Assembly: GCA_030167145.1 (NCBI GenBank)
Contig: CP126532.1
Span: 3,000,001 to 3,032,000, forward strand
Source of the DNA: Ktedonobacterales bacterium
GTDB lineage: Bacteria > Chloroflexota > Ktedonobacteria > Ktedonobacterales > JADMIN01
Length of the DNA: 32,000 bases
Direction: 5' to 3'
Positions 16,366-32,000 of the stretch are shown piece by piece (positions within the stretch are counted from its first letter, which is position 1; every line of letters starts with the position of its first letter). Position numbers and translations under genes: made by a program. Below the pieces are notes generated by a model that was not told the DNA's origin, made no database searches, and was given only the letters and a program-made list of their open reading frames with translations.

Positions 16366-16971
16366 ATGAAGTTGAGTGAGTATGCTCGCCAACACGGGAT
16401 TAGCTATAAGACGGCTTGGCGCTGGTGGAAAGCGGGCAGGTTGCCAGGCAAGCAGATGCCGTCAGGAACAGTCATCCTCTTGCCTGAACAACCCGTGGTG
16501 TCGCAATCGCCACAGGTGGCTATTTATGCCCGTGTCTCTTCGGCAGAAAATCGCCGCAACCTCGAGCCACAGGCACAGCGGGTGGCAGCGTATTGTGCCG
16601 CACGTGGGTATCAGGTGCAGCAGGTTGTGAAAGAAGTGGGATCAGGCGTCAATGATAGCCGCCCCAAATTTCTCTCGCTGCTGGCCGATACCACGGCAAC
16701 AGTGATTGTGGTGGAACACAAAGATCGGGCAACACGCTTCGGATTTCGCTATCTAGAAACCTTGTTAGCGCAACAAGGGCGACGGATGGAAGTGGTGAAT
16801 CTGGCGGAGAATGGGCAAGAGGATCTCATTGCCGATCTGGTCGCTATCGTGTATTCGTTTAGCGCGCGCCTGTATGGACAGCGACGGGCAAAGCGCAAGG
16901 CGATTGCTATTCAAACGATCTTAGAAGGTGAGGATCAGCGCGATGCAACTGGTGGAACAACATCGCATTGA
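16366..16971 (+). CDS. tnpA: IS607-family serine recombinase transposase
   Basis: N-terminal MerR-like HTH (MKLSEYARQHGISYKTAWRWWKAGRLPG) followed by a resolvase-type catalytic core (VAIYARVSSAENRRNLEPQ...). Confidence 0.9.
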   Translation: MKLSEYARQHGISYKTAWRWWKAGRLPGKQMPSGTVILLPEQPVVSQSPQVAIYARVSSAENRRNLEPQAQRVAAYCAARGYQVQQVVKEVGSGVNDSRPKFLSLLADTTATVIVVEHKDRATRFGFRYLETLLAQQGRRMEVVNLAENGQEDLIADLVAIVYSFSARLYGQRRAKRKAIAIQTILEGEDQRDATGGTTSH

Positions 16972-18160
16972 CCGCCATGATCCCCGCTTTGCGCAGATTG
17001 ACGCTGCCGCCTTTGCGAGCAAGAACCTCTATAATGCGGCACTGTATCAGATGCGTCAGCACTATATCAAGGACCATGCGGTCATTACGTACAGCGACTT
17101 GGATAAGCTGATGCAGCCCAGCACGGAATATCGGGCATTGCCCGCTAAGGTCGCGCAATGGATACTCAAGCAAGTGACGCTCGCTTGGAAAAGCTATCTT
17201 GCCGCGTGTCGTGAATGGCAAGTGCATCCCAGCAAGTTCCTGGGCCATCCCAAACTCCCAAAATATCTGGACAAGCAGGGGCGCAATCTGCTAACCTATA
17301 CCGATCAGGCGATTAGCCGGGTGAAGCTCCGTCAGGGGGTCGTGGACTTTTCGGGCCTTACCATCGCAGTCAAGACGCGGCACGATCTGCCTGCTCAAGT
17401 GCGCATCGTGCCGCATGCTACCCACTACACGGTCGAGGTGGTCTACGAACGCGCACCCGTTCCTGCTGATGTCGATCCCACAGTGATTGCTGGGATTGAT
17501 CTGGGTGTCAACAATTTGGCGACGATAACAGCAAACCAGCCCGGCTTTGTGCCGCTTCTGGTTAACGGTCGCCCGCTCAAAGCATTGAACCAGTGGTACA
17601 ACAAACGACGCGCCGATCTGCAAGCGAAGCTCCCCAAAGACCAGTTCACCTCACGACAGTTGGAGATCGTAACTGACAAGCGCAAACGACAGATCGATCA
17701 CTATCTGCATGTTGCCAGTCGGCAGATCATCGCTGTGCTGGTGCGGCACCGCATTGGCACGCTGGTCATCGGCAAGAATGACGGCTGGAAGCAGCAGGTG
17801 AACCTGGGCAAACGCACGAATCAGACCTTTGTTTTCCTGCCACATGCACGGTTCATTGACATGCTGACCTACAAGGCACAGTTAGTCGGCATCACAGTTA
17901 TCCCTACCGAAGAGAGCTACACCAGCAAATGTAGCTTTTTGGATAACGAGTCGATAGAGCATCATGATCAGTATGTGGGCAGGCGGGTCAAGCGCGGGCT
18001 ATTCGTCTCGGCAACAGGGCGCAAGGTGAATGCCGATGTCAACGGCGCCTACAACATGATTGCCAAAGTGGTCCCAAATGCGGTGTTCCGCAATGGGAGA
18101 GCGGGTGTGGTAGTTCACCCGGTAGGGCTTGCCCTGCGTAACCGAGAACATGTGGCATAA
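16943..18160 (+). CDS. tnpB: TnpB (IS605 OrfB-type RuvC-like, RNA-guided nuclease family)
   Basis: Track ORF 16928..18160; ATG 16943 (MQLVEQHRI) is probable. RuvC-I is IAGIDLGVNNLA, RuvC-III is NADVNGAYNMIA, and the central region reads YTSKCSFLD. Overlaps the tnpA 3' end. Confidence 0.9.
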   Translation: MQLVEQHRIDRHDPRFAQIDAAAFASKNLYNAALYQMRQHYIKDHAVITYSDLDKLMQPSTEYRALPAKVAQWILKQVTLAWKSYLAACREWQVHPSKFLGHPKLPKYLDKQGRNLLTYTDQAISRVKLRQGVVDFSGLTIAVKTRHDLPAQVRIVPHATHYTVEVVYERAPVPADVDPTVIAGIDLGVNNLATITANQPGFVPLLVNGRPLKALNQWYNKRRADLQAKLPKDQFTSRQLEIVTDKRKRQIDHYLHVASRQIIAVLVRHRIGTLVIGKNDGWKQQVNLGKRTNQTFVFLPHARFIDMLTYKAQLVGITVIPTEESYTSKCSFLDNESIEHHDQYVGRRVKRGLFVSATGRKVNADVNGAYNMIAKVVPNAVFRNGRAGVVVHPVGLALRNREHVA

Positions 18161-22260: not shown

Positions 22261-22264
22261 CGCA

Positions 22265-22328
22265 GTTGTAGCGCCGCCGTCCCGGCGGCTCGCGCCCACC
22301 ACATCCGTACCGCCGCCGTCCCGGCGCC
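22265..22328 (+). repeat. Two REP-like family B elements (GTAG/GTAC + GCCGCCG-TCC-CGGCGGC hairpin)
   Basis: gttgtagcgccgccgtcccggcggctc (22265-22291) is identical to 29927-29953. A second, degenerate copy gtaccgccgccgtcccggcg lies at 22307-22326. Confidence 0.8.
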
Positions 22329-22338
22329 CCCCCGCGCG

Positions 22339-25300
22339 CTACTCCTCCTCGCCCGCCGCCTCCTGCCCCATGCGATACTTGATATCGTAGTTGATGATGA
22401 AGTCGAGCTCCTCCTCCGTGAAGCCGTAGTGCCGCGCCAGCACGCGGTCTATCTCGTCTATGATGGGCTTGGAGAGACGCGGCTGGAATGTTTGGATCGT
22501 TAGCACTCCAAACTTCCCATAATTATTGGTGAGTGACTTGGAATTAGAAGCGAAGTCCTTCATTACCTGAATGCTTAGACCTTGCAGTGCTTTCGCAAGG
22601 CTTGGTCTAATCTCGTCAATAGTACATGGGAATGCCTCGATCTCGCGACGGTTTACATTACGAACATCAGAGTATGTGCAAAAGAACCAGAAGAAGAGGC
22701 TAGAGTTTAGGATTGCAAGGACAAGATCCCGATGCAACACAGAACCTAAATGGACTTCCTTGAGTTCTGAGGGTTGAAGCTTTTCGCCACGTGAGTCTGT
22801 AATCCTTGGAATGAAGTCAAGAAACTGAACGAAATACCTCAGTTTCCTTGTATAATAAACTACCGATTCCGAGTGAGGCACAAAGAAGGATCTCAGCGGC
22901 TTCTGCTTGCTGAGTCGTTCGAGAATACTTGTCTCTCTGGCAGTTGCCACTTTAGGAATAGCACTATTTACCGAGGTTCTATCATCGCTTAGCGATGCGA
23001 AAGTGATAGTCGCGAAGAGGATATCTCGCTCTTCACTGAACCACCTTCTATAGTTAGATACTTGTAGTCCTTCCCCATGTCGCACATTCCGCATCAACCA
23101 AATTGTTAGGCGCTTTTCAACACCAGTGAAAAGTTTGGATGGGCGCTCTGCGAAGCTGAGATTCCACGAAAGCCGCCCAGGATGAATCAAGCATGCTCTC
23201 AGATCATCGAAGCCATCTGTGCTAACTACTGAGACAGGTACGATCATGCCCATTGCCCCGTCATGGCTCAACAGGCCAGTAGACCGCTCCATAACAAATG
23301 AGTAAAGGTCACCGCACTTTTCTGTGAGGAACCCTTTTATCGAATACTGGTTCTGGATGTTCTTATACTCCACATACGGCGGATTCCCAATAATCACGTC
23401 GAAGCCGCCGCGCGAGTGGACGATGCCATAGAACTCGACGAACCAGTGGAAGGGCTGGTGGCTGGCGCGCCACGGCTCGAAGGCGAAGAGGTCGTTGGGG
23501 TCCACGCCGTATTCGCGCGCCAGGTAGCCGTTCAACACGGCGTTGAGGTCGTCCAGGCTGCGGCGCAGGTCGGCTTTGTCCTTGTGGGTGATCTCGCCAC
23601 CATAGGTCGTCTGCTGGTCGCGGAACTGTTTAAACTTGCTGGCGGCAATATCGGCTTTCTCGTTGATGCGCCGGAGAATCTCCTCGTCTTCTGGATAGGG
23701 CATGCGCAATTGGCCGTTGGGACCGCCGTACATCATGGCGTCGCGGACGGCATCCAGGGTGGCGAAGCCGACCAGCGTGTTGCCAGCGCGGATGTTGAAG
23801 TCAATATCGGGCAGCGGCTCCAGGTTCGCCTTGTCGTCCACCTGGGCGACGAGCTTGAGGAAGAGGCGCAGCTTGGCGATCTCGCAGGCTTCGGCCATGA
23901 TGTCTACGCCGTAGAGGTTGTTGACGATGATCGTCTTCAGGATGGCGTAGCGCGGGTTGGGGTGCTGCTTGACCGAAGCGAGAATGGCGCGGAGGTCGGG
24001 CGCGGAGCGGCTATCGCCGAGGCGGTCATAGTCGGCGACAAAGGCGCGCATGCGGTCCAGGGCGGCGGTGTAGAGCGGTTCGAGGATGGTGAGCGCCGCG
24101 AAGAGGAACGCGCCGGAGCCGCAGGTGGGGTCGAGGATGGTGATGGAGTTGAGCGCCTGCCAGAAGGCGCGCAGCAGTTCCACGCCCTCGCAGCGTTCGA
24201 TCACGTCGCGGGCGAAGCGTTCGATGTCGAGGTTGTAGGTAATCAGGTCGTTGATGCTGGTGATCTCGCCAGCGGCGAGCTTCGCGCGCAACTCGTGGCA
24301 GCGGGTGCGGCGGGCGACATACTCGCGCCAGGTTTCGGTGGGCAGCGCGTAGCTTGCGGCGGCGGGGCGGTTCCAGCCGCTGCGCTGGGCCACGTCGCCG
24401 ATGCCCGCCGCGATGTCTTCAGGGAGATCGAGGTCTACGCCCCGGCGCACGGCTTCGTAGATGTAGGCGTCGGGGTCGTCGCGCAGCAATCGCCAGACTT
24501 CGCCGTCGGGCGCGAAGGCGACCTTACATTTCTCGCGGGCGGAGTCGAAGAGGAAGGGCAGGATCGTGTTGCGGCCAATGTAGCCGGTGATATCCTCTTT
24601 GGTGTAGTACGCGCCCATCTGCTTCTGGTTGATGTATTTCTCGAAGATATAGCCCAGCACGTCGGGGTTGATCTCTTTGTCGGAATGTTTCTCGTCGTGA
24701 TGCTCGGTATCCAGATGCCAGTGGTATTCGTCGAAGAAGGCGAAGACGCGGGCGAAGGCGTCGTCGGGGATAGCGATGGCGGGGTTGGCAGCTTCGATCT
24801 GGTGGACCTCGAAAAGGCCGCCGTTGACGTAGGGGATGTCGCCGATCAGCGCGGCGAGGTCGTCGGCGCGTTCGGCGCGCGGCTGGCCGAGGCCCTCGTG
24901 GAAGAAGCGACGCAAGAATTCACGATAGAAGCGGTCGAACTGGCCGTCGCCGTGGCGCTCGCGGACCAGCTTCAGTCGGTTGGGCAGGTAGTTGGTGTCG
25001 CCGTCGAGAAAGTCCTTCTTCTGGATGAAGTAGGTGAACATCAGGCGGTTGAGCATCAGCGAGGCGTACCAGGCGCGCTGATCGTCGCTGGCGATGCCTT
25101 CGATGCGTTTGAGGAAGGCGTCATGTTCGGTCTTGAAGCGGTCGTAGAAGCGTTTGGTAGTGCGCTCCACATCGAAGGAGCCGGAGACTTTGCGAGCGAC
25201 ATCGAGAATGGTGAGGGTCTCTTCGTCGGCAATGTCTATGGCGAAGTCGCGCAACCGCTGCACGAGCGCCTCGCCAGTCTGCCCCGCGAAATAGGGCTGC

Positions 25301-25656
25301 TCGCGGACCGCGATGGGCTTACCGGGCTGGCGCTTCACCCACTGCCAGATCTGGCGCGTACGCTCACGGTCTACGAAGATGATGAGATGCTCGCGGGCGA
25401 GCTTAGTCACCTGGCTCTCGATCTGCTTGCGGGTGCTGTAATCCGGGATGCCGCCGCGCGGGTCGGGGTCGCAGAGCAGCACGGAGAAGCCGCGCTTCTG
25501 GGCGACGTGGCGCAGGATATAGGTCTCGCCGCCAGCGACGACGCTCAGCGTGTTGGCGGGAGGGTTATCCCAGCCTAGCTCTTCGATGAAGAGCGCGGTG
25601 AAAGCGAAATCTTTGAGGCAGGCACGCATGCGACTGGTAGCAACAGCAACAGCCAT
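22339..25656 (-). CDS. Large gamma-class N6-adenine DNA methyltransferase (Eco57I/TaqI-like) with an N-terminal unknown domain and a C-terminal TRD-like region
   Basis: Track ORF 22339..25827. I place the start at ATG 25656 (MAVAVATSRM..., GAAGGAG RBS 10 nt upstream), because the longer form overlaps the upstream gene by 120 nt. Motif I is ILDPTCGSGAFLF, motif IV is VIIGNPPYVEY, and the conserved tail reads RHYGFTEEELDFIINYDIKYRMG. Confidence 0.9.
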   Translation of the reverse strand: MAVAVATSRMRACLKDFAFTALFIEELGWDNPPANTLSVVAGGETYILRHVAQKRGFSVLLCDPDPRGGIPDYSTRKQIESQVTKLAREHLIIFVDRERTRQIWQWVKRQPGKPIAVREQPYFAGQTGEALVQRLRDFAIDIADEETLTILDVARKVSGSFDVERTTKRFYDRFKTEHDAFLKRIEGIASDDQRAWYASLMLNRLMFTYFIQKKDFLDGDTNYLPNRLKLVRERHGDGQFDRFYREFLRRFFHEGLGQPRAERADDLAALIGDIPYVNGGLFEVHQIEAANPAIAIPDDAFARVFAFFDEYHWHLDTEHHDEKHSDKEINPDVLGYIFEKYINQKQMGAYYTKEDITGYIGRNTILPFLFDSAREKCKVAFAPDGEVWRLLRDDPDAYIYEAVRRGVDLDLPEDIAAGIGDVAQRSGWNRPAAASYALPTETWREYVARRTRCHELRAKLAAGEITSINDLITYNLDIERFARDVIERCEGVELLRAFWQALNSITILDPTCGSGAFLFAALTILEPLYTAALDRMRAFVADYDRLGDSRSAPDLRAILASVKQHPNPRYAILKTIIVNNLYGVDIMAEACEIAKLRLFLKLVAQVDDKANLEPLPDIDFNIRAGNTLVGFATLDAVRDAMMYGGPNGQLRMPYPEDEEILRRINEKADIAASKFKQFRDQQTTYGGEITHKDKADLRRSLDDLNAVLNGYLAREYGVDPNDLFAFEPWRASHQPFHWFVEFYGIVHSRGGFDVIIGNPPYVEYKNIQNQYSIKGFLTEKCGDLYSFVMERSTGLLSHDGAMGMIVPVSVVSTDGFDDLRACLIHPGRLSWNLSFAERPSKLFTGVEKRLTIWLMRNVRHGEGLQVSNYRRWFSEERDILFATITFASLSDDRTSVNSAIPKVATARETSILERLSKQKPLRSFFVPHSESVVYYTRKLRYFVQFLDFIPRITDSRGEKLQPSELKEVHLGSVLHRDLVLAILNSSLFFWFFCTYSDVRNVNRREIEAFPCTIDEIRPSLAKALQGLSIQVMKDFASNSKSLTNNYGKFGVLTIQTFQPRLSKPIIDEIDRVLARHYGFTEEELDFIINYDIKYRMGQEAAGEEE

Positions 25657-25674
25657 GTAAATTGTACTCCTTCT

Positions 25675-25699
25675 GTAGCGCCGCCATCTCGGCGGCTCG
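25675..25699 (+). repeat. REP-like family B variant in the 49-bp helicase-MTase spacer
   Basis: gtagcgccgccatctcggcggctcg: GTAG plus a GCCGCC/GGCGGC stem. Confidence 0.7.
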
Positions 25700-25705
25700 A
25701 TGCTG

Positions 25706-28700
25706 TCACTGTGAGAAGAGGCCAAGCGAGCAGATAAGCTGCGGCTCGCGGCTTGTGGCATCGTCTTGCGTATGACAGAGGCGATCTTCGTTGCGCAGGG
25801 TGATGACCAGTTCGGCAAGTATCTCATCGCTGATACCGGCCTTGAGCTGGCGGTTGAGCGTATCTATGGCGGACTGGCGCAGCGTAAAGCGATAGATGTC
25901 CTCAATAGCGCGGGGCAGTTCTTCCGATTCCCAGAGCGTGCCCTTGATGCGCTCGTTGAAAGATTTGAGGCGCTCATAGGTGCGAAAACGCGCGCCGGAG
26001 GGGCGGCCAAGCTGGCCTCCGATGTGTTGCTCTTCAGCGGCAAGGTGGCGCATGCCAGCAAGCACCAGATCGTGGTGGGCCGGGTCGCGCGGCACCGCCG
26101 GGGTGTCGGGCGCGCACTCGGCGGCGCGGAGGATGGTAAGCTGCGATTGCGTGACGGCATTGCCCTGGCGGTTCATCCAGGCGAGGGCGTCATTGCCCTC
26201 GGCGGTACGAACGTAGACGAGCACACCTTCGGGCGCGCTGGGCGTGGGCGTGTGGGCGCGGCTGGAATAAACGACGGGCGGCAGGTCGGGGATGGTTTTC
26301 TGGAGCGATGGGTCGCGGTCAATGGCGTTCTTCCAGATCTGATAGGCCTGGGAGGTGAGGTCTATTTCGGTATCGGCGTCGCCGTCGAGGATACCAGCCT
26401 TCTCGTTGTAGATATCGAGGATCGGGCGGTCGTCGCGGTCATCTTCGAAGAACGATTCATCGGTGCCGACCACCTCAGCGTTCTCGCGCAGGCGCTGGCG
26501 CACGCGCGAGCGGAGGCGGATGATACGCTCCACGCCATCGGCGGGCAGGAACGAGAGGCAGCGAATCTCATGGGCCTGCTGGCCGATGCGGTCCACACGC
26601 CCGGCGCGCTGGATGAGGCGGATGATGGCCCAGGGCAGGTCGTAGTTGACGATGATCGCACAGTCTTGCAGGTTCTGGCCTTCGGAGAGGACATCGGTGG
26701 CGATCAGCACGCGCAATTCATCGTGTGGGGCGATGGCCTTGCCATTGCTGAGCGGGCTGAAGCGCCAGGCGAGGGCGGTGGGGTCGGCGGAGTCGCCAGT
26801 GACGCCCGCGAGCGCGGATATACCGCGCGCCTGGAGTTGCGTGGTGAGATAGCGGACGGTATCGGCGAACTGGGTGAAGATGAGCACTTTGTCGTTGGGA
26901 TAGGTTTGGGTGAGGAGCGTAGCGAGCGCGTTGAGCTTGGCATCGCGCGCAGCATCCCACGGGCCACAGGTGGCGAGCACGCTGAGCAGGGCATGAGCAT
27001 CGCGCAGCAGGTGCTCGCGCAGGTCGGCGACGAAGAGGCCGGGGCGCAGCCACTTGAAGCGCTTGCGATACTGTCTGGCATAGCCGCCATAGATCTCAGC
27101 GGCACGGCGGCGATAGTCGTCTTCGGTGCGCAGCGCGCTGGTGACGCTCGCGGACTGCTCTTCTATCTCGTCATCTTCAAGGCCAGGGAGGACGGCGTCG
27201 GCATCTTCGTCGTAGGCGCGGGTATCGAGCAATTGCGGCTCCTGCGTGCCAAGCGGGAGATCATGGCCGGTCTCGATGGCGTGCAGGTAGACGAAGTTGC
27301 GCAGGATGTGGCGCTCGATGGATTCGATAAAGGCGGGGCCACCGCTTTCGAGCCGCTTGAAGAGGTTGGTACGGCAGAAGCCCATCAGACGCTTGCCCGC
27401 ACGCGAGAGACCGGCAAGCTGTTTGGCTTCCGCCTGGGTGGGGGGCTTATCCGGCGTAGGGGCGACGTAGTTGCCGAGACCGTAGCGCGGGAGATAGAGC
27501 GCGTTCACGGCGTCTACCACGCGCCCGGAATAGAGGCGGGCGTAGGGGTCGGCGGGGTCGCCGTCGTTGATGGTAAACCTGATGGTCTGCGGGACACGCG
27601 CCGGGAAGTATGAGCGCGTGCCATCGGGGAAGGTGAGGAAGGTGCGCCCGTTGGTAGGGTCGGTCTGGGCGTAGTTTTGCTGGATGAAGCCGCGCGTGCG
27701 CCGGACCATGTAGAGGCGCATCAGGTCGCGCCAGTCATCTGCGTATTCGCTCTGCTCGAAGGCGGCGAGCGAGCGCACGGGGCACTGGTGGCGGCGAACG
27801 AACTCGGTCTCGCCAAGCTCGGCAAGTCGCTTTTCGGGGCGGATGCCAAGGTCTTGCTCTGGCGGGACGAAGAGGCGCAACTGCGCGGAGAGATCGAGAT
27901 AGGTCTTGTTATAGGGCGTGGCGGTGAGCAGAATGCAGCGACTATCGTTCTGCTCGATGTACTCGCGGATGGCTTTGTAGCGGCTGCCCTCGCGGTTGCG
28001 CAGGTTGTGGCTCTCGTCAATGAGCACGAGACGGTAGCGGCGCAGGTCTGGGAGTTGCTGCATCACCTGGCTGACGGAGAGGACTTTGGCGATGAGGCGA
28101 TAGCGGGCGACGTAATCTTCCCACATCCTGACGAGGTTCTTGGGGCAGATGATGAGGGTTTCCCAACTGTAGTCGTCCTGAAAGACGCGGGCGAGCGCGG
28201 TGGCCATGAGCGTCTTGCCGAGACCGACGACATCGCCGATAAGCACGCCCGCGCGCTTGTTGACGTGATGCGCCGCGATGCGCACGGCGGCCTGCTGGAA
28301 CTCGAAAAGCTGATTACCAAAGTCGCGGGGAACGTGGAACTGAGAGAGGCCCGCTCGCGCTTCCTGGGAGAGATGGTAGGCGATCTTGAGATAGATGCAA
28401 TAGGGTGGGAGCAGGTCTTCACGCGCCCAACTGGTATCAATGATGTCCGCCAGCTCATCCGAGATGTCGAGGCACCAGCGATCCTGCCAGCGGTCGTTGA
28501 ACCACTGCTCCAGCTTACGCGCGGCGTCGTGTTCCAAAACGTCAACATTCAACTCACCCTGCTGTTTCAGCCCGGCGAAGGTGAGATTGCTGCTGCCAAG
28601 GAAGCCAGTGATGGGGTTGTTGAGATCATCGCGGAAGAGGAGATAGAGCTTGGCATGCAGCGCGTGCCGCAGATGCAGCTTGACGATGACTTTTCTGGCG

Positions 28701-29068
28701 CGAAGTTGGGCGCTGAGGCGGCGCAATGCAGCCTCGTCGGCGTCGGTAGGGATACCATGTGTGAGTTGTTCGCGGAAATCGGCGGCAGCGCGCTTCTTGA
28801 GTTGCAGCACCTGCGCCTGGTCAACCGCAGCGCCGCCGCTCAGGCTGAGGGCTGCGCGTAGCTCATCCTGCGGTAACTGCTGCATACCAACAAGCACACG
28901 ACAGCATGCGCCCTCACCACCTGCCCAGCGTTCGACGATGGGGTCTATGGTCCGCCAGCCGCGGAGGTTGAAATAGCCGACGCAAAAGTCCGCGCGCTGA
29001 GCGGTTTCGAGTGTACCGCGCAATGTGGAAAGCAGGTCCAACTCGATGTTATCGAAGATCCTGGGCAT
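25706..29068 (-). CDS. PLD(HKD)-family nuclease domain fused to an SNF2/SF2 helicase-translocase
   Basis: 1120 aa. There is a single N-terminal HKD motif (HALHAKLYLLF ... GSSNLTFAGL). The SF2/SNF2 motifs are GDVVGLGKTLMA (I), LIDESHNLRN (II), LLTATPYNK (III), SEGQNLQD (V) and QRAGRVDRIGQ (VI). A ~250-aa C-terminal extension has no recognised motif. Confidence 0.9.
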   Translation of the reverse strand: MPRIFDNIELDLLSTLRGTLETAQRADFCVGYFNLRGWRTIDPIVERWAGGEGACCRVLVGMQQLPQDELRAALSLSGGAAVDQAQVLQLKKRAAADFREQLTHGIPTDADEAALRRLSAQLRARKVIVKLHLRHALHAKLYLLFRDDLNNPITGFLGSSNLTFAGLKQQGELNVDVLEHDAARKLEQWFNDRWQDRWCLDISDELADIIDTSWAREDLLPPYCIYLKIAYHLSQEARAGLSQFHVPRDFGNQLFEFQQAAVRIAAHHVNKRAGVLIGDVVGLGKTLMATALARVFQDDYSWETLIICPKNLVRMWEDYVARYRLIAKVLSVSQVMQQLPDLRRYRLVLIDESHNLRNREGSRYKAIREYIEQNDSRCILLTATPYNKTYLDLSAQLRLFVPPEQDLGIRPEKRLAELGETEFVRRHQCPVRSLAAFEQSEYADDWRDLMRLYMVRRTRGFIQQNYAQTDPTNGRTFLTFPDGTRSYFPARVPQTIRFTINDGDPADPYARLYSGRVVDAVNALYLPRYGLGNYVAPTPDKPPTQAEAKQLAGLSRAGKRLMGFCRTNLFKRLESGGPAFIESIERHILRNFVYLHAIETGHDLPLGTQEPQLLDTRAYDEDADAVLPGLEDDEIEEQSASVTSALRTEDDYRRRAAEIYGGYARQYRKRFKWLRPGLFVADLREHLLRDAHALLSVLATCGPWDAARDAKLNALATLLTQTYPNDKVLIFTQFADTVRYLTTQLQARGISALAGVTGDSADPTALAWRFSPLSNGKAIAPHDELRVLIATDVLSEGQNLQDCAIIVNYDLPWAIIRLIQRAGRVDRIGQQAHEIRCLSFLPADGVERIIRLRSRVRQRLRENAEVVGTDESFFEDDRDDRPILDIYNEKAGILDGDADTEIDLTSQAYQIWKNAIDRDPSLQKTIPDLPPVVYSSRAHTPTPSAPEGVLVYVRTAEGNDALAWMNRQGNAVTQSQLTILRAAECAPDTPAVPRDPAHHDLVLAGMRHLAAEEQHIGGQLGRPSGARFRTYERLKSFNERIKGTLWESEELPRAIEDIYRFTLRQSAIDTLNRQLKAGISDEILAELVITLRNEDRLCHTQDDATSREPQLICSLGLFSQ

Positions 29069-29118
29069 CGCAAGCGGCTTTCTTCAGTGTAGCAAGTGAA
29101 GCGGGAATCGCGCTGTTC

Positions 29119-29147
29119 AGTATACACGCTGACCTCTTGGCGCGCAA
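29119..29147 (-). promoter_or_regulatory. Candidate promoter for the PLD-SNF2 gene
   Basis: On the minus strand: TTGCGC (complement of 29142-29147), 17-nt spacer, TATACT (complement of 29119-29124). It lies ~50 nt upstream of ATG 29068. Confidence 0.45.
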
Positions 29148-29165
29148 TGGCTGAGCGCGCCGCGA

Positions 29166-29191
29166 GTTGTACCGCCGCCGTCCCAGCGGCT
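29166..29191 (+). repeat. REP-like family B variant (GTAC) between the DprA-like and PLD-SNF2 genes
   Basis: gttgtaccgccgccgtcccagcggct: two mismatches relative to the 27-mer at 22265 and 29927. Confidence 0.7.
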
Positions 29192-29206
29192 GGCGAGACG
29201 CCTGCG

Positions 29207-29845
29207 CTACACGACGAGTGGCCAGAGGGTTGCGACGCCTGCGGGGCGAACGGGGCGAGCGCCGAGAGCAAGAAGGCTGGCGTTGTGGTCGTCTTCAAGG
29301 GTGAAGAGCGGTTTGCCCCAGGTGACGATCTCGCTGGTGAGCGCCTCAATTTTGCCGCCGGGGGAAGCATAGGCGGCAAAAACAGCAGTGGCGAGCGCGG
29401 CGGCGAAGCGGTTGCGTGTGAGGGCGGTCGCGGCGGTGAGGCGTGGCGCATTGTCAAATGGCGAGAGGATAAGCAATCGTCCCTGCTCGATGGGTGCGCG
29501 CCAGGCAGCGGGGAGGCGCATGCGAGCGATGTCACGTGCGGGGCAGAGGATAACAGGCTGGGAGCCGCGCAGCAGCAGGCGCAGGCATTCGCGTTCCATC
29601 GGCGAGTGGAAGCCGCCAATCACGGGGATGCCAGCGTCGCGCAGAGCAATGGCGAGATCGTAGGCAGCGAGGATGATGGAACCGGGACAGCGAACAGAAC
29701 AGAGAAAGGCAAGCGAAGGCCGGAGCAGTATGGCAGGGTCGCCAATAGCAATGAGCGTGGGTAGCGTAGTGAAGGCTGACCGGACGCCCGCCGGATACAA
29801 CGGGGAATCCGGCGTGATGCGCACTTGCTGTCGCGGTGCGGTCAT
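29207..29845 (-). CDS. Stand-alone DprA/Smf-like (SLOG/Rossmann) domain protein
   Basis: 212 aa; ATG 29845 with GAGAGGAGG upstream. The layout matches the DprA Rossmann core: LAFLCSVRCPGSIILAAYDLAIALRDAGIPVIGGFHSPMERECLRLLLRG..PVILCPARDI...GRLLILSPF...RNRFAAALATAVFAAYASPGGKIEAL. It lacks the N-terminal SAM and C-terminal DML1/winged-helix domains of competence DprA. Confidence 0.65.
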   Translation of the reverse strand: MTAPRQQVRITPDSPLYPAGVRSAFTTLPTLIAIGDPAILLRPSLAFLCSVRCPGSIILAAYDLAIALRDAGIPVIGGFHSPMERECLRLLLRGSQPVILCPARDIARMRLPAAWRAPIEQGRLLILSPFDNAPRLTAATALTRNRFAAALATAVFAAYASPGGKIEALTSEIVTWGKPLFTLEDDHNASLLALGARPVRPAGVATLWPLVV

Positions 29846-29880: not shown

Positions 29881-29926
29881 TGCGGGCAGGTGCAGACGGT
29901 GGCCGGAGTCCCGCCTGCGGTACAAG

Positions 29927-29953
29927 GTTGTAGCGCCGCCGTCCCGGCGGCTC
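29927..29953 (+). repeat. REP-like family B element, identical to 22265-22291
   Basis: 27/27 identity, same orientation. It sits between the two divergent promoters. Confidence 0.8.
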
Positions 29954-29989
29954 CTGGGGCGGACCGTCCCGTCTGCCCGCCCGCTCACC

Positions 29990-30018
29990 TTGACCGTATC
30001 GAACGCATGTCCTATACT
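29990..30018 (+). promoter_or_regulatory. Near-consensus sigma70 promoter firing into a gene-less repeat region
   Basis: TTGACC (29990-29995), exactly 17-nt spacer, TATACT (30013-30018). No convincing ORF or RBS occurs for the next ~700 nt. Confidence 0.55.
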
Positions 30019-30107
30019 ACCCCTAAACCCATGCCACCACGCGCGGTGAGCCACAACACGGCGCCGCTCCCCCACCACCCGGAGGAGCGGCGTCCTTCAT
30101 TCTCCAG

Positions 30108-30657
30108 CAGAATCGGCAACTTTGCTCTCCCCTTCCCTACCTCTGCTCTCCCCTTCCCTGGTAGGGAAGGGGTTGGGGGTTAGGTCATTGCGGCGAAAAA
30201 ATGAAACAGCGGCGAAAACGGCGAAAATCGCAAAAACGAAAAATCGGCAGAATCGGCAACTGCCATCATCTGCAATTGCGAGCATCGGCCATATCGGCCA
30301 CTGGTGGGGCAGACATTCCTGTCTGCCACTCCGGCCATATCGGCCACTGCCAATCGCCTGCGAACAAGATTACCCACGGCATTCATGCCGAGAGCTTCCC
30401 TCATCATCCGCCTGCCCTTCGCACCGAATCAAAAAATCGGCAGAATCGGCAACTCTGGCAACTGCACAAATCGGCCACATCGGCCATTTCGGCAACTCTG
30501 GCAACTGCCACATACGCGAAATCGCGGCGAAAACGGCGAAAAATCTCCCCCACTTCCCGTCATATCCCGTCATTCGCCCCATCCAACCGCAAAAATCGGC
30601 CAAATCGGCAACTGCCCCTGTGCGGCCATTCCGGCCACTCCGGCCACTCCGGCCAAG
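30108..30657 (+). repeat. Non-coding mosaic array of short direct repeats built on a CGGC(A/C/G)A core with 9-bp spacing
   Basis: I counted 23 CGGC[ACG] cores by hand. Within clusters they are always 9 bp apart (for example 30245/30254, 30286/30295, 30472/30481/30490, 30623/30632/30641/30650). Longer exact modules: 23-mer aaaaatcggcagaatcggcaact at 30239 and 30432 (variants at 30108 and 30591); 20-mer tcggcaactctggcaactgc at 30446 and 30489; 19-mer gcggcgaaaacggcgaaaa at 30209 and 30524; 18-mer cggccatatcggccactg at 30286 and 30332; ccggccact in triplicate at 30631-30657. Confidence 0.85.
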
Positions 30658-30688
30658 AGATGCGGAGCCAAGGATCGCTTGGTGGCAA

Positions 30689-30697
30689 TGGTACAAT
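30689..30697 (+). promoter_or_regulatory. Extended -10 promoter proximal to the 30732 gene
   Basis: TGgTACAAT at 30689-30697, ~35 nt upstream of ATG 30732/30735. Confidence 0.4.
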
Positions 30698-30731: not shown

Positions 30732-32000
30732 ATGATGCGGGTGAACGGGGAGGACTTCTTTTCGCGGACGCCAGTGGACCTCGAAGGCGCAACCGACGCC
30801 GAAGCCGATGCCGCGCTGGGCGCGCTGCTGCATCTCTACCTGCGCGATAGCTTCGACGAGCACAAAGGCTGCTGGCCGGGCCGCGACGAACACGACACCC
30901 TGCGGCGCACCTGCCACGCCGTGGAAGTGCTGCACCGGCTGAACCTCGACGCCGACACCGCCACGATGGTCCGCGCCGGCGGCAACTGGCTCATCAATCT
31001 GCCCGTCTACGACATCCTCTCCCAGGACGACCGCGACCGGCTGCGGCTCTATCCCAGCCGCTTCAAGACACTGGCGTATCTCAAGCGCTTCGACGACGAC
31101 CTCCTGCGCCGCGACTACGCCGATCTGCTGCGCAAAGAAGTCGGCGGCATGGTGCGCGGCGTCACCGAATCGGACGTGCTCACCACCTGCATCGTGCTGG
31201 ATACGCTGGTGACGCTGGAAGAGAACGGGCAGCGCTATCAGGTCTGCTCCAACGAACGCTACGGGCGCATCATCACCGCGCTCAACCAGCAACTTCGCGG
31301 TTGGAAGCCCCCGAGCGCGCATGCCAGCGGCGCGACACGCGCACGGGCGCAATCTGTGGCCACGAGCGAGGCCAGCGCAGCGACGAGCGGCGGACGCAAG
31401 CGCCGCCCCGCGCCGCCCTGCGAAATTGACAACTGGCGCGACCTCAGCTATGTGCTGGGGCTGCTGCTGACGGCGGACCGCACCAGCATCGCGCCGAAGC
31501 AACTGGAGATCGTGACCAACGCGCTCAGCGCGCAGATCAGCGAGCGCACCCGCGCCCACTTCAGCGATCTGGCCCAGGTCCACTACACCGCGCTGCAACT
31601 GGCCGAGCACTTTCGCGGCGAAGAGACGATTCACAGCGCGATCAGCGCACTGCTCGCCGAACTGCGCGCGACCTACGCCACCCCCGACGCGACCCGCCGC
31701 TGGGACTTCTCGTATCACGCGACAGTGATGCGACTGCTGCTGACGCATCACGGCGATAGCGAACTGGCGCGGCGCGTGGTCGCGCGCTATCTGCGCGACG
31801 CCGAGCGCAGGCACGCGGTGGAGCGCGGCACGGTGGACGTGGAGCTGCGCGCGGTGATTCGCGAGCGCATCGAGATCGAGGTCGGGCATGTGATGGAGCT
31901 TTCCGGCGGCTATACCGACGACCACATCTATCGCGTGCCGTTCGTCTATGGGCATCCCGCGCCCGAACAAGATGGCGCGTGGCATCCCCGGCAAGAAGCC
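30732..32000 (+). CDS. Large hypothetical protein (helical-repeat N-terminal region; possible kinase-like domain starting at the window edge); 3' end beyond the window
   Basis: Absent from the ORF track because it has no stop in the window. Manual translation from ATG 30732 is open for all 423 codons with strong GC3 bias: MMRVNGEDFFSRTPVDLEGATDAEADAALGALLHLYLRDSFDEHKGCWPGRDEHDTLRRTCHAVEVLHRLNLD... It ends ...VGHVMELSGGYTDDHIYRVPF, which resembles the Gly-rich loop of APH/protein-kinase-like folds. The listed minus-strand ORF 30720..31994 is its antisense shadow. Confidence 0.75.
   Translation, partial: MMRVNGEDFFSRTPVDLEGATDAEADAALGALLHLYLRDSFDEHKGCWPGRDEHDTLRRTCHAVEVLHRLNLDADTATMVRAGGNWLINLPVYDILSQDDRDRLRLYPSRFKTLAYLKRFDDDLLRRDYADLLRKEVGGMVRGVTESDVLTTCIVLDTLVTLEENGQRYQVCSNERYGRIITALNQQLRGWKPPSAHASGATRARAQSVATSEASAATSGGRKRRPAPPCEIDNWRDLSYVLGLLLTADRTSIAPKQLEIVTNALSAQISERTRAHFSDLAQVHYTALQLAEHFRGEETIHSAISALLAELRATYATPDATRRWDFSYHATVMRLLLTHHGDSELARRVVARYLRDAERRHAVERGTVDVELRAVIRERIEIEVGHVMELSGGYTDDHIYRVPFVYGHPAPEQDGAWHPRQEA

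Follow-up and report, generated by a model that had tools for sequence, protein, structure and literature searches.

What is the repeat-built DNA that fills the gap between two divergent genes of a Ktedonobacterales bacterium: a landing array for proteins, a curved or slippage-prone regulatory region, or the template of a repeat-containing non-coding RNA (ncRNA)? The question is raised by a stretch of 32,000 nucleotides (the window) taken from a 5.07-Mb contig of a metagenome-assembled genome (MAG) of this order (locus tags OJF49_ at NCBI; JGI record 3300045419 Ga0494333_323). Adding 3,000,000 to a window position gives the position in the record. In the window, an array of CGGC cores occupies most of an 886-bp gap between divergent genes. 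The analysis showed that this array belongs to a family of non-coding elements, ∼0.6–0.8 kb each, which is present in several copies and restricted to one lineage. Judging from sequence, these elements might be independently transcribed, repeat-rich ncRNAs acting as multivalent binding platforms, a reading to which we give a little less than an even chance.

The 9-bp register of the window array

The original prediction described ∼23 CGGC cores with rigid 9-bp spacing, and this description held. The region 30100–30665 contains 24 CGGC cores, 21 of which fit CGGC[A/C/G]A, at a density of 42 per kb as against 13 per kb in the remainder of the window. Twelve successive core intervals measure exactly 9 bp, and all the remaining ones at least 17 bp. 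When the array region was subjected to 1000 dinucleotide-preserving shuffles, the values were far lower: cores averaged 6.5 and never exceeded 15, and nine-spaced pairs averaged 0.07, with no more than 2 in any shuffle. The entire 32 kb holds 20 nine-spaced CGGC pairs, 12 of them in the array region. The 9-bp CGGC array is real and statistically solid. As had been claimed, the cores of the window array come as singles, doublets, one triplet and one quadruplet, and nothing like the array was found elsewhere in the 32 kb. The extra 8 kb of locus L001 held no such array either.

The longer repeats were recovered too. Four modules of 18–23 nt are each duplicated exactly, 43–315 bp apart, at the spacings reported earlier:

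30239 and 30432: exact 23-mer duplicate, 193 bp apart
30446 and 30489: exact 20-mer duplicate, 43 bp apart
30209 and 30524: exact 19-mer duplicate, 315 bp apart
30286 and 30332: exact 18-mer duplicate, 46 bp apart

The tandem triple that had been noticed at the right-hand end was detected by Tandem Repeats Finder at 30623–30655 (period 9, 3.7 copies, 95% matches), and the phased A-tracts proved to be GAAAA units at 30191–30243 and 30525–30543 that keep the 9-bp register of the array. Two of the roles suggested for the region found no support. Planar curved DNA is at odds with a 9-bp phasing, which runs out of step with the 10.5-bp helical repeat (a point reasoned, not computed), and a classical contingency locus would need an open reading frame (ORF) or a promoter spacer for slippage to act on, which the array does not offer.

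A dispersed family of at least six arrays

Because gene calling takes stretches so poor in stops for ORFs, protein collections were searched with translations of the array. This gave array-derived ORFs of the source contig, annotated as OJF49_000795, OJF49_001179, OJF49_004109 and OJF49_004802 (locus L015), together with the JGI call P0005; a fifth array lies at locus L014 (record position 2.684 Mb, 346 kb from the window array), and the window array is the sixth. The first three were compared as ORF translations, while array DNA was analysed for the window, L014 and L015. Since OJF49_000795, OJF49_001179 and OJF49_004109 match other arrays only at the level of modules (30–68% identity), they represent separate loci, and the source genome holds at least six arrays. 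The protein search also yielded ORFs on two soil metagenome contigs, L012 and L013. A search of 1.84 billion representative proteins with array ORF P0001, which misses arrays read in other frames, rendered just two further ORFs, and a two-frame peptide profile recovered P0003 only.

An exact 20-mer scan of 185,579 genomes gave seven matches. That in L004, a Chloroflexia MAG, is a true, divergent array, while five of the seven are coincidences within coding sequence (three encode an Lgt-like IGRIGN motif and two fall in other ORFs; translation by eye). The seventh, in L009, is a piece of array within a gene. At L009 5600–5700 (also in L010 and L011), two doublets of the repeat unit called module A below lie in frame in the N-terminal linker of an ORF, with a 24-nt stretch identical to the window; we take this ORF, from its translation, to be 2-oxoglutarate dehydrogenase E1-like, and it belongs to another Ktedonobacterales MAG. 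An exact 23-mer scan of JGI metagenomes, a collection without the source contig, returned only this same gene fragment. Scans of viral contigs for modules B and C gave no matches, and blastn of the array found nothing in phages and, in plasmids, nothing similar to the array body. Rfam 15 had no match at gathering score in the whole window, and for the two elements with the first type of leader (window and L014) it gave nothing usable at E values up to 10. The literature searched contained no match for the module sequences and no relevant paper on Ktedonobacter with repeats or BldC. With no Rfam family or paper matched, the element is apparently undescribed.

The genes that follow the arrays on their 3′ side differ: an APH/TCAD9 gene in the window, a zinc-ribbon Ser/Thr kinase gene at L014, an ABC ATPase gene at L004 and, at L012, an ORF that we read as hydantoinase-like from its translation. 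The array shared by L015 and L013 lies between the 3′ ends of convergent Vgb-lyase-like and YtxH-like genes and stops at the terminator hairpin of the latter, so that it has no gene to serve. A role tied to this one locus found no support: the element is dispersed over at least six arrays, which the original prediction had itself named among the signs that would refute it.

This distribution bears on several of the identities that direct repeats in an intergenic gap beside a defence-type gene module bring to mind, namely an iteron or centromere, operators bound by the XRE or sigma-like proteins encoded alongside, or a CRISPR array that has degenerated. The dispersed chromosomal copies stand in unrelated gene contexts; XRE/sigma-like genes are absent from the other loci, which argues against the proposed operator, and none of the arrays has rep or par genes nearby, which argues against an iteron or centromere. 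No rep, par or cas genes were present among the window ORFs scanned, the only protein related to cas products being an IS607-type TnpB 12 kb away, and neither phages nor plasmids matched the array body. The units are only 9 nt long and the sequences between them also recur across arrays, in agreement with the earlier statement that the region is not CRISPR-like. The probability of any of these identities is minimal. A protein-binding DNA array is nevertheless still a live rival, for a genome-wide factor rather than for the neighbouring genes.

Module vocabulary and parts of the window element

The same modules were found in all arrays, on one strand only, with more than 120 units co-oriented with a promoter-like leader. 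The modules are:

Module A: AAAAATCGGCAGAATCGGCAACTG, with nonamer doublet AATCGGCAGAATCGGCAACTG
Module B: (G)CGGCGAAAA, in two to four copies
Module C: ATCGGCCAyATCGGCCACTG and longer runs, with doublet ATCGGCCATATCGGCCACTG
Module P: C-rich decamer TCCCGTCA, period 10
Module H: hairpin GGCAGACA-UUCY-UGUCUGCC
Module D: GATTACCC, then a 5-bp stem with a UUCA loop
Module E: hairpin CGGCCA-UUYA-UGGCCG, then AGA

In the window they are arranged as follows:

29990–30018, + strand: predicted sigma-70-like promoter TTGACC-17-TATACT (consensus match only), pointing into the array
30056–30100, + strand: leader hairpin of 11 bp with a C-rich loop (arms 30062–30073 and 30081–30092; inverted repeat I4), then TCCTTCATT
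30107–30124, + strand: truncated module A GCAGAATCGGCAACTTTG (direct-repeat family D4), cut by the adjoining hairpin element
30120–30185, no strand assigned: separate hairpin element CCCCTTCCCT...GGTAGGGAAGGGG, then TTGGGGGTTAGG (repeats I3 and D7), outside the repeat family
30187–30238, + strand: B-type units, CGGCGAAAA singly, then a tandem pair, then degenerate A-rich 9-mers
30239–30264, + strand: module A doublet AAAAATCGGCAGAATCGGCAACTGCC, the exact 23-mer found again at 30432
30284–30349, + strand: module C doublet, hairpin H GGCAGACATTCCTGTCTGCC (30308–30327), module C doublet
30368–30395, + strand: module D, as GATTACCC, the 5-bp hairpin with UUCA loop CGGCATTCATGCCG and AGAGC
30432–30510, + strand: module A doublet plus TGGCAACTG, then triplet CGGCCACAT CGGCCATTT CGGCAACTC plus TGGCAACTG
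30521–30585, + strand: module B doublet, then C-rich module P (TCCCGTCA twice, period 10)
30590–30616, + strand: A/C hybrid doublet AAAAATCGGCCAAATCGGCAACTGCC
30623–30668, + strand: C-type quadruplet of CGGCCATTC, two copies of CGGCCACTC and CGGCCAAGA, with tail GGCCAAGAGATGCGG
30689–30697, + strand: extended −10-like motif TGGTACAAT, read from the sequence, just upstream of the APH + TCAD9 gene

The 18-mer core of module A is identical in L012 (four copies), L013 (three), L014 (two), L015 and L004, and the 19-mer GCGGCGAAAACGGCGAAAA of the B-type block recurs at 30524 and in L012–L015. The tail GGCCAAGAGATGCGG resembles, by eye, the 3′ module E GGCCGAGATCGC. None of the other arrays has the hairpin element at 30120–30185, which in the window breaks into the first array module; ∼40 nt of this element (30148–30190) are 90–92% identical to two plasmids of the cyanobacterium Calothrix (blastn against plasmids). 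A short-read contig of the same organism, L002, starts exactly at 22265 and ends at 30177, within this hairpin element.

The register across arrays and a possible docking of a protein on duplex DNA

Repeat units have the form [N-A-N-W-H]CGGC, and the final unit of a run is usually CGGC[A/C]ACTG. Position 9 of the unit is always C, and its 5′ part is A/T-rich in a genome of 63% GC, although AATT is rare. Across six arrays, 56 of the 121 successive core intervals were exactly 9; an interval of 8 occurred once and one of 10 never. Clusters held one core in 30 cases, two in 34, three in 5 and four in 4.

Such a register would be expected if the arrays served as operators of a small winged-helix protein whose protomers assemble head-to-tail along 9-bp direct repeats, in the manner of BldC, Xis and other recombination directionality factors. 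The ∼120 or more sites in the arrays of the genome would then be covered by nucleoprotein filaments, by which the factor is titrated or the promoters on either side of each array are controlled. BldC provides the precedent: each protomer binds one 9-bp direct repeat (consensus AATTXXXX(C), optimum CAATTCGGACAATTCGGACA), and its sites comprise two repeats at whiI and four at smeA-sffA (PMC5859096; PDB 6AMA, 6AMK). Runs of 9-bp direct repeats of this kind were indeed present, the array clusters being head-to-tail, all on one strand and of two to four units; the A/T-rich 5′ part and the invariant C would also suit such a protein, and promoter-like motifs adjoin the arrays at both ends. However, protein docking leaves the leader hairpin, modules P, H, D and E and the conserved 3′ module unexplained, as it does the strict co-orientation of units with the leader and the array placed between convergent genes. 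The discrete, conserved classes A, B and C are unlike the loose indirect readout of BldC, whose known sites are single clusters rather than 10–12 clusters over 500 bp. No BldC-like ORF was found in the ∼80 kb of source genome searched, in which the best match was the helix-turn-helix of the IS607 TnpA (E = 0.26). We consider docking on duplex DNA unlikely, though it is a contender to be taken seriously.

Leaders and 3′ ends of the elements

The site at 29990–30018 is the only promoter-like one between 29600 and 31000; it agrees with the consensus at 10 of 12 positions, a quality for which 0.3 sites are expected per 1.4 kb. The hairpin that follows has an RNA folding energy of −26.3 kcal/mol (z-score −6.2). 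At the homologous place, the L014 leader carries TTGCCT-17-TATACT, which is its only promoter-like site; the 20-mer TCGAACGCATGTCCTATACT in the promoter region is identical in the window and L014, and the L014 hairpin keeps the same 11 pairs with a different loop. A second leader type was seen in L013 and L015: CTGACCGTATTCGACC ... TGCTACACT. Where the 5′ end is available, each element begins with a promoter-like leader, that of type 1 consisting of sigma-70-like −35 and −10 sequences and a predicted stable hairpin with a C-rich loop.

At the other end, module E closes the arrays of L013, L014 and L015 and is present in L012 too. The nonamer TGGTACAAT found downstream of the window array also ends that of L012, and L004 has TGGTATGCT at the equivalent position. 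Most elements end in the predicted hairpin of module E, and several then run straight into what looks like the extended −10 of the next gene.

These features bear on whether the array is transcribed. Among the four roles originally proposed, a repeat-containing ncRNA starting from the promoter at 29990–30018 fitted best, given that the promoter and the hairpin after it are kept in the paralogue 346 kb away and that the units are co-oriented. We favour an own transcription unit because promoter and hairpin leader stand at homologous sites in two paralogues, because of this co-orientation, because one array is placed between convergent genes and because of the hairpin module at the 3′ side.

Turnover of modules

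Some module orders recur: B-P in L012, L013, L014 and L015; C-H in L012, L013 and L015; and C-D-A. The parts at 30432–30616 of the window are collinear with L014 10196–10376, with 82% identity across a block of 193 nt, while the 132-nt leader is 77% identical between these two loci; all blastn matches are plus/plus. L013 and L015 are orthologous loci with flanks 93.5% identical over 586 nt, and their array bodies match module by module only, in rearranged order. Unit copy number differs among paralogues and orthologues, and tandem expansions of 9-, 10- and 15-nt units occur in arrays. By sequence comparison, the modules are nearly constant, while their number and order change fast.

Rapid change of this kind between orthologous loci, together with the tandem expansions, is also what a selfish or neutral mosaic repeat (like cyanobacterial STRR, pneumococcal BOX or enterobacterial BIME) would leave behind: an ancestral segment copied round the chromosome and altered by slippage, unequal recombination and gene conversion, with any promoter or terminator activity incidental. 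The element is multi-copy, intergenic and confined to a single lineage, as such repeats are; its leader is conserved no better than its body, an array-like fragment is tolerated in the coding linker at L009, and unrelated short tandem repeats occur nearby in the same genome (L014 9540–9660, which precedes the paralogous array by 350 bp, has ∼5 copies of the 9-mer GACAATAAC and four of the 11-mer TATCCATCATG). Set against this, exact 18–23-mers are kept between organisms whose flanks have diverged by 6.5%, when by our calculation a neutral 23-mer would be unchanged only ∼21% of the time. The near-consensus promoter at the 5′ edge is not expected of a neutral segment either, nor is a definite boundary at both the 5′ and the 3′ side. 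The element showed neither terminal inverted repeats nor target duplications, and no transposase accompanied it; modules were never met singly outside arrays in ∼80 kb of the source genome. An origin of the family purely as a mosaic repeat appears distinctly unlikely.

Stop depletion

The original prediction called the region stop-poor. This is true of the + strand, which has 3 stops in three frames against 9.5 expected, and not of the minus strand, which is normal. The same holds for the five arrays of the window and L012–L015, in which 0–4 stops were counted over all three frames against 8.5–10.5 expected, with a normal minus strand. No trinucleotides of the + strand fall further below expectation than TAA (2 observed, 19.7 expected) and TGA (6 and 22.1), and depletion extends to non-repeated segments (10 against 20.8). 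One explanation would be a translated leader, in which ribosomes cross the stop-poor + strand in any frame, either making low-complexity peptides or shielding the transcript from Rho; the leaders of L013 and L015 do contain TAAGGAG followed, 10–11 nt on, by GTG or ATG.

Other observations contradict this explanation. Module A is read in three frames within ORF P0001 (NRQNRQL, IGRIGN and KSAESAT); between the orthologous ORFs P0002 and P0007, identity is 30% with 25% gaps, as against 93.5% for the flanking DNA; no array ORF matched a Pfam family, and neither a start codon nor a ribosome-binding site is conserved in type-1 leaders. Besides, four of six arrays were found via called ORFs, which introduces a bias to open frames. 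In the two arrays not found in this manner, stops were depleted in the window (3 against 9.5) and not in L004 (6 against 7.2). The frame usage of module A, the divergence of the ORFs and the lack of a Pfam family bear out the earlier view that coding is implausible, and on these sequences we regard coding as excluded. The stop depletion leaves a small probability on translation-related readings, and a translated leader is very improbable.

A putative multivalent RNA

If the element is transcribed from its own promoter, the product would be a C- and A-rich, G-poor and weakly structured RNA showing ∼20 copies of (A/U)UCGGC(A/C)A in a fixed 9-nt register. The window transcript would start near 30025 and extend to ∼30670, either ending before the APH/TCAD9 gene or reading into it. 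Such an RNA would serve as a multivalent platform or sponge for a putative RNA-binding factor, and the genomic copies, sharing one promoter type, would answer a common signal, in a manner analogous to the CsrB/RsmZ and CrcZ families. The arrays show a matching strand asymmetry, with 31–37% C, 20–24% G and more A than T. Their small hairpins are predicted by folding to be stable as RNA. The hairpin of module D is present in six copies in five arrays, with 86% of cells paired and two pairs changed on both sides (C-G to U-A and A-U to C-G, plus G-U variants), and the H variants of L012 and L013 keep their pairing via G-U, on the array strand only. These changes give weak support to an RNA.

Several points count against this RNA. 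The covariation comes from 4–6 sequences, 16 of 500 shuffles attain the observed pairing, and two A-C mismatches occur. Folding predicts the CGGC cores to be unpaired at 0.22–0.33, as against 0.44–0.48 overall, so single-stranded display of the cores is not favoured. The promoters are predicted solely from their fit to the consensus, a search for terminator-like sites in the window region found none, and the second array of L012 is without leader. An exact 9-unit register suits proteins on duplex DNA better than a flexible RNA, and tandem duplication by itself yields such a register. No candidate binding protein was identified, and Rfam had no family to offer. An alternative folding of module A, as GGCAG/CUGCC round a 9-nt loop, was dropped, the closing CTGC(C) being present in only ∼5 of 12 copies (by eye).

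A wider possibility joins the RNA and DNA alternatives. In Ktedonobacterales, co-regulated array RNAs of 0.6–0.8 kb, each made from a promoter to itself, or the same arrays as duplex DNA, might constitute a new regulatory class, a genome-wide sink for a nucleic-acid-binding protein that oligomerises head-to-tail. Such a sink would follow the titration logic of Csr/Rsm, or would be a BldC regulon expanded into decoy arrays, in either case with new parts. We hold this to be doubtful, if clearly worth entertaining.

Genes and repeats around the window array

To the left of the array, on the minus strand, lies a defence-type operon of three genes (22339–29845). They encode a protein resembling type IIG restriction-methyltransferases (PADLOC REase_MTase_IIG, 1227 bits), an HKD(PLD)-SNF2 helicase and a DprA/PsyrA-like protein (29207–29845). 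The first two ORFs overlap at 25706–25827. A REP-like hairpin repeat, GTAGCGCCGCCGTCCCGGCGGCT, is present in five copies of one orientation (22264–22294, 22303–22333, 25671–25701, 29165–29195 and 29926–29956); it flanks this operon at both ends and sits in both its intergenic gaps, and it was not found in L014 or L015.

To the right, a gene for an 890-aa APH + TCAD9 protein starts at 30732, in agreement with the JGI gene call (full length in L001 6442–9114). TCAD9 is a domain of ternary conflict systems; the match, at 32.7 bits, is under the Pfam cut-off of 40.

Further away, an IS607-type unit (16366–18160) encodes a serine recombinase with an N-terminal MerR-like helix-turn-helix and a TnpB with OrfB_IS605 and Cas12f1-like TNB domains. 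The ends of this IS607 were considered as a source of the nonamers and rejected: its flanks have no similarity to the arrays and no nonamer motif.

Comparison with known systems

Ktedonobacteria are little-studied, mycelial, spore-forming Chloroflexota. Should the arrays work as RNAs or as landing pads for a protein, they would point to a novel global regulator in this group, and modules A, B and C are defined probes with which it could be sought. For annotation, the gain is that at least six "hypothetical proteins" of the MAG are array artefacts (OJF49_000795, OJF49_001179, OJF49_004109, OJF49_004802 and two JGI gene calls).

CRISPR arrays consist of near-identical repeats of ∼23–50 nt split by unique spacers. 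The elements described here resemble them in having a promoter leader at one end, followed by a one-directional array with fast turnover. They differ in that their repeats are 9–23 nt long, degenerate and of several classes, in that modules H, D and P recur, so that there are no unique spacers, and in the absence of cas genes.

Other DNA-binding and promoter signatures were compared by eye. The spacing of sigma-54 promoters does not fit, as the offset from GG to GC is 10 rather than 12, and AdpA and DnaA boxes do not fit either, only some units matching TGGCSNGWWY. A close protein-binding parallel is BldC of Streptomyces (PMC5859096): its sites too are 9-bp direct repeats read head-to-tail, two or four in a row, that combine an A/T-rich part with a conserved C:G, and TCGG is common to its optimum unit AATTCGGAC and the array units. 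BldC sites, however, are short, single promoter clusters of loose sequence, whereas the arrays comprise 10–12 clusters and three classes, with interleaved hairpins, in at least six copies. The exact 9-unit register is nonetheless a rare, testable parallel to BldC DNA binding outside Actinobacteria.

The type-1 leader recalls 6C RNA (Rfam RF01066), a family of Actinobacteria with C-rich-loop hairpins, the model of which touches the same leader position in both paralogues. The scores are 23 bits (window 30045–30098; E = 1.5) and 20 bits (L014 10036–10091; E = 4.1) against a gathering score of 47, and the leader has one such hairpin, not two; this is a resemblance among C-rich-loop hairpins only.

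Among regulatory RNAs, CsrB/CsrC, RsmX/Y/Z and CrcZ/CrcY are paralogous RNAs of hundreds of nucleotides with a common promoter type and many copies of a short conserved motif. The arrays share with them several paralogues per genome, a promoter type in common, and a constant motif whose number and intervening sequence vary. Those RNAs carry GGA in hairpin loops or A-rich CA motifs, whereas the arrays repeat (A/U)UCGGC(A/C)A as tandem doublets with a rigid 9-nt spacing; the arrays match no Rfam model and belong to a host of another phylum.

Among interspersed repeats, REP are imperfectly palindromic units of ∼35 nt found in both orientations, which alternate, pneumococcal BOX elements have a fixed A-Bn-C order, and cyanobacterial STRR are built of 7-nt heptamer units. 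Like BOX, BIME/REP of E. coli and STRR, the arrays are lineage-specific, intergenic and multi-copy, with few module types of varying copy number, and like STRR they consist of short tandem units in several sequence classes. What sets them apart from REP, BOX and STRR, as these are generally described, is that they are direct repeats of one orientation, with a promoter-hairpin leader and fixed 9-nt doublets.

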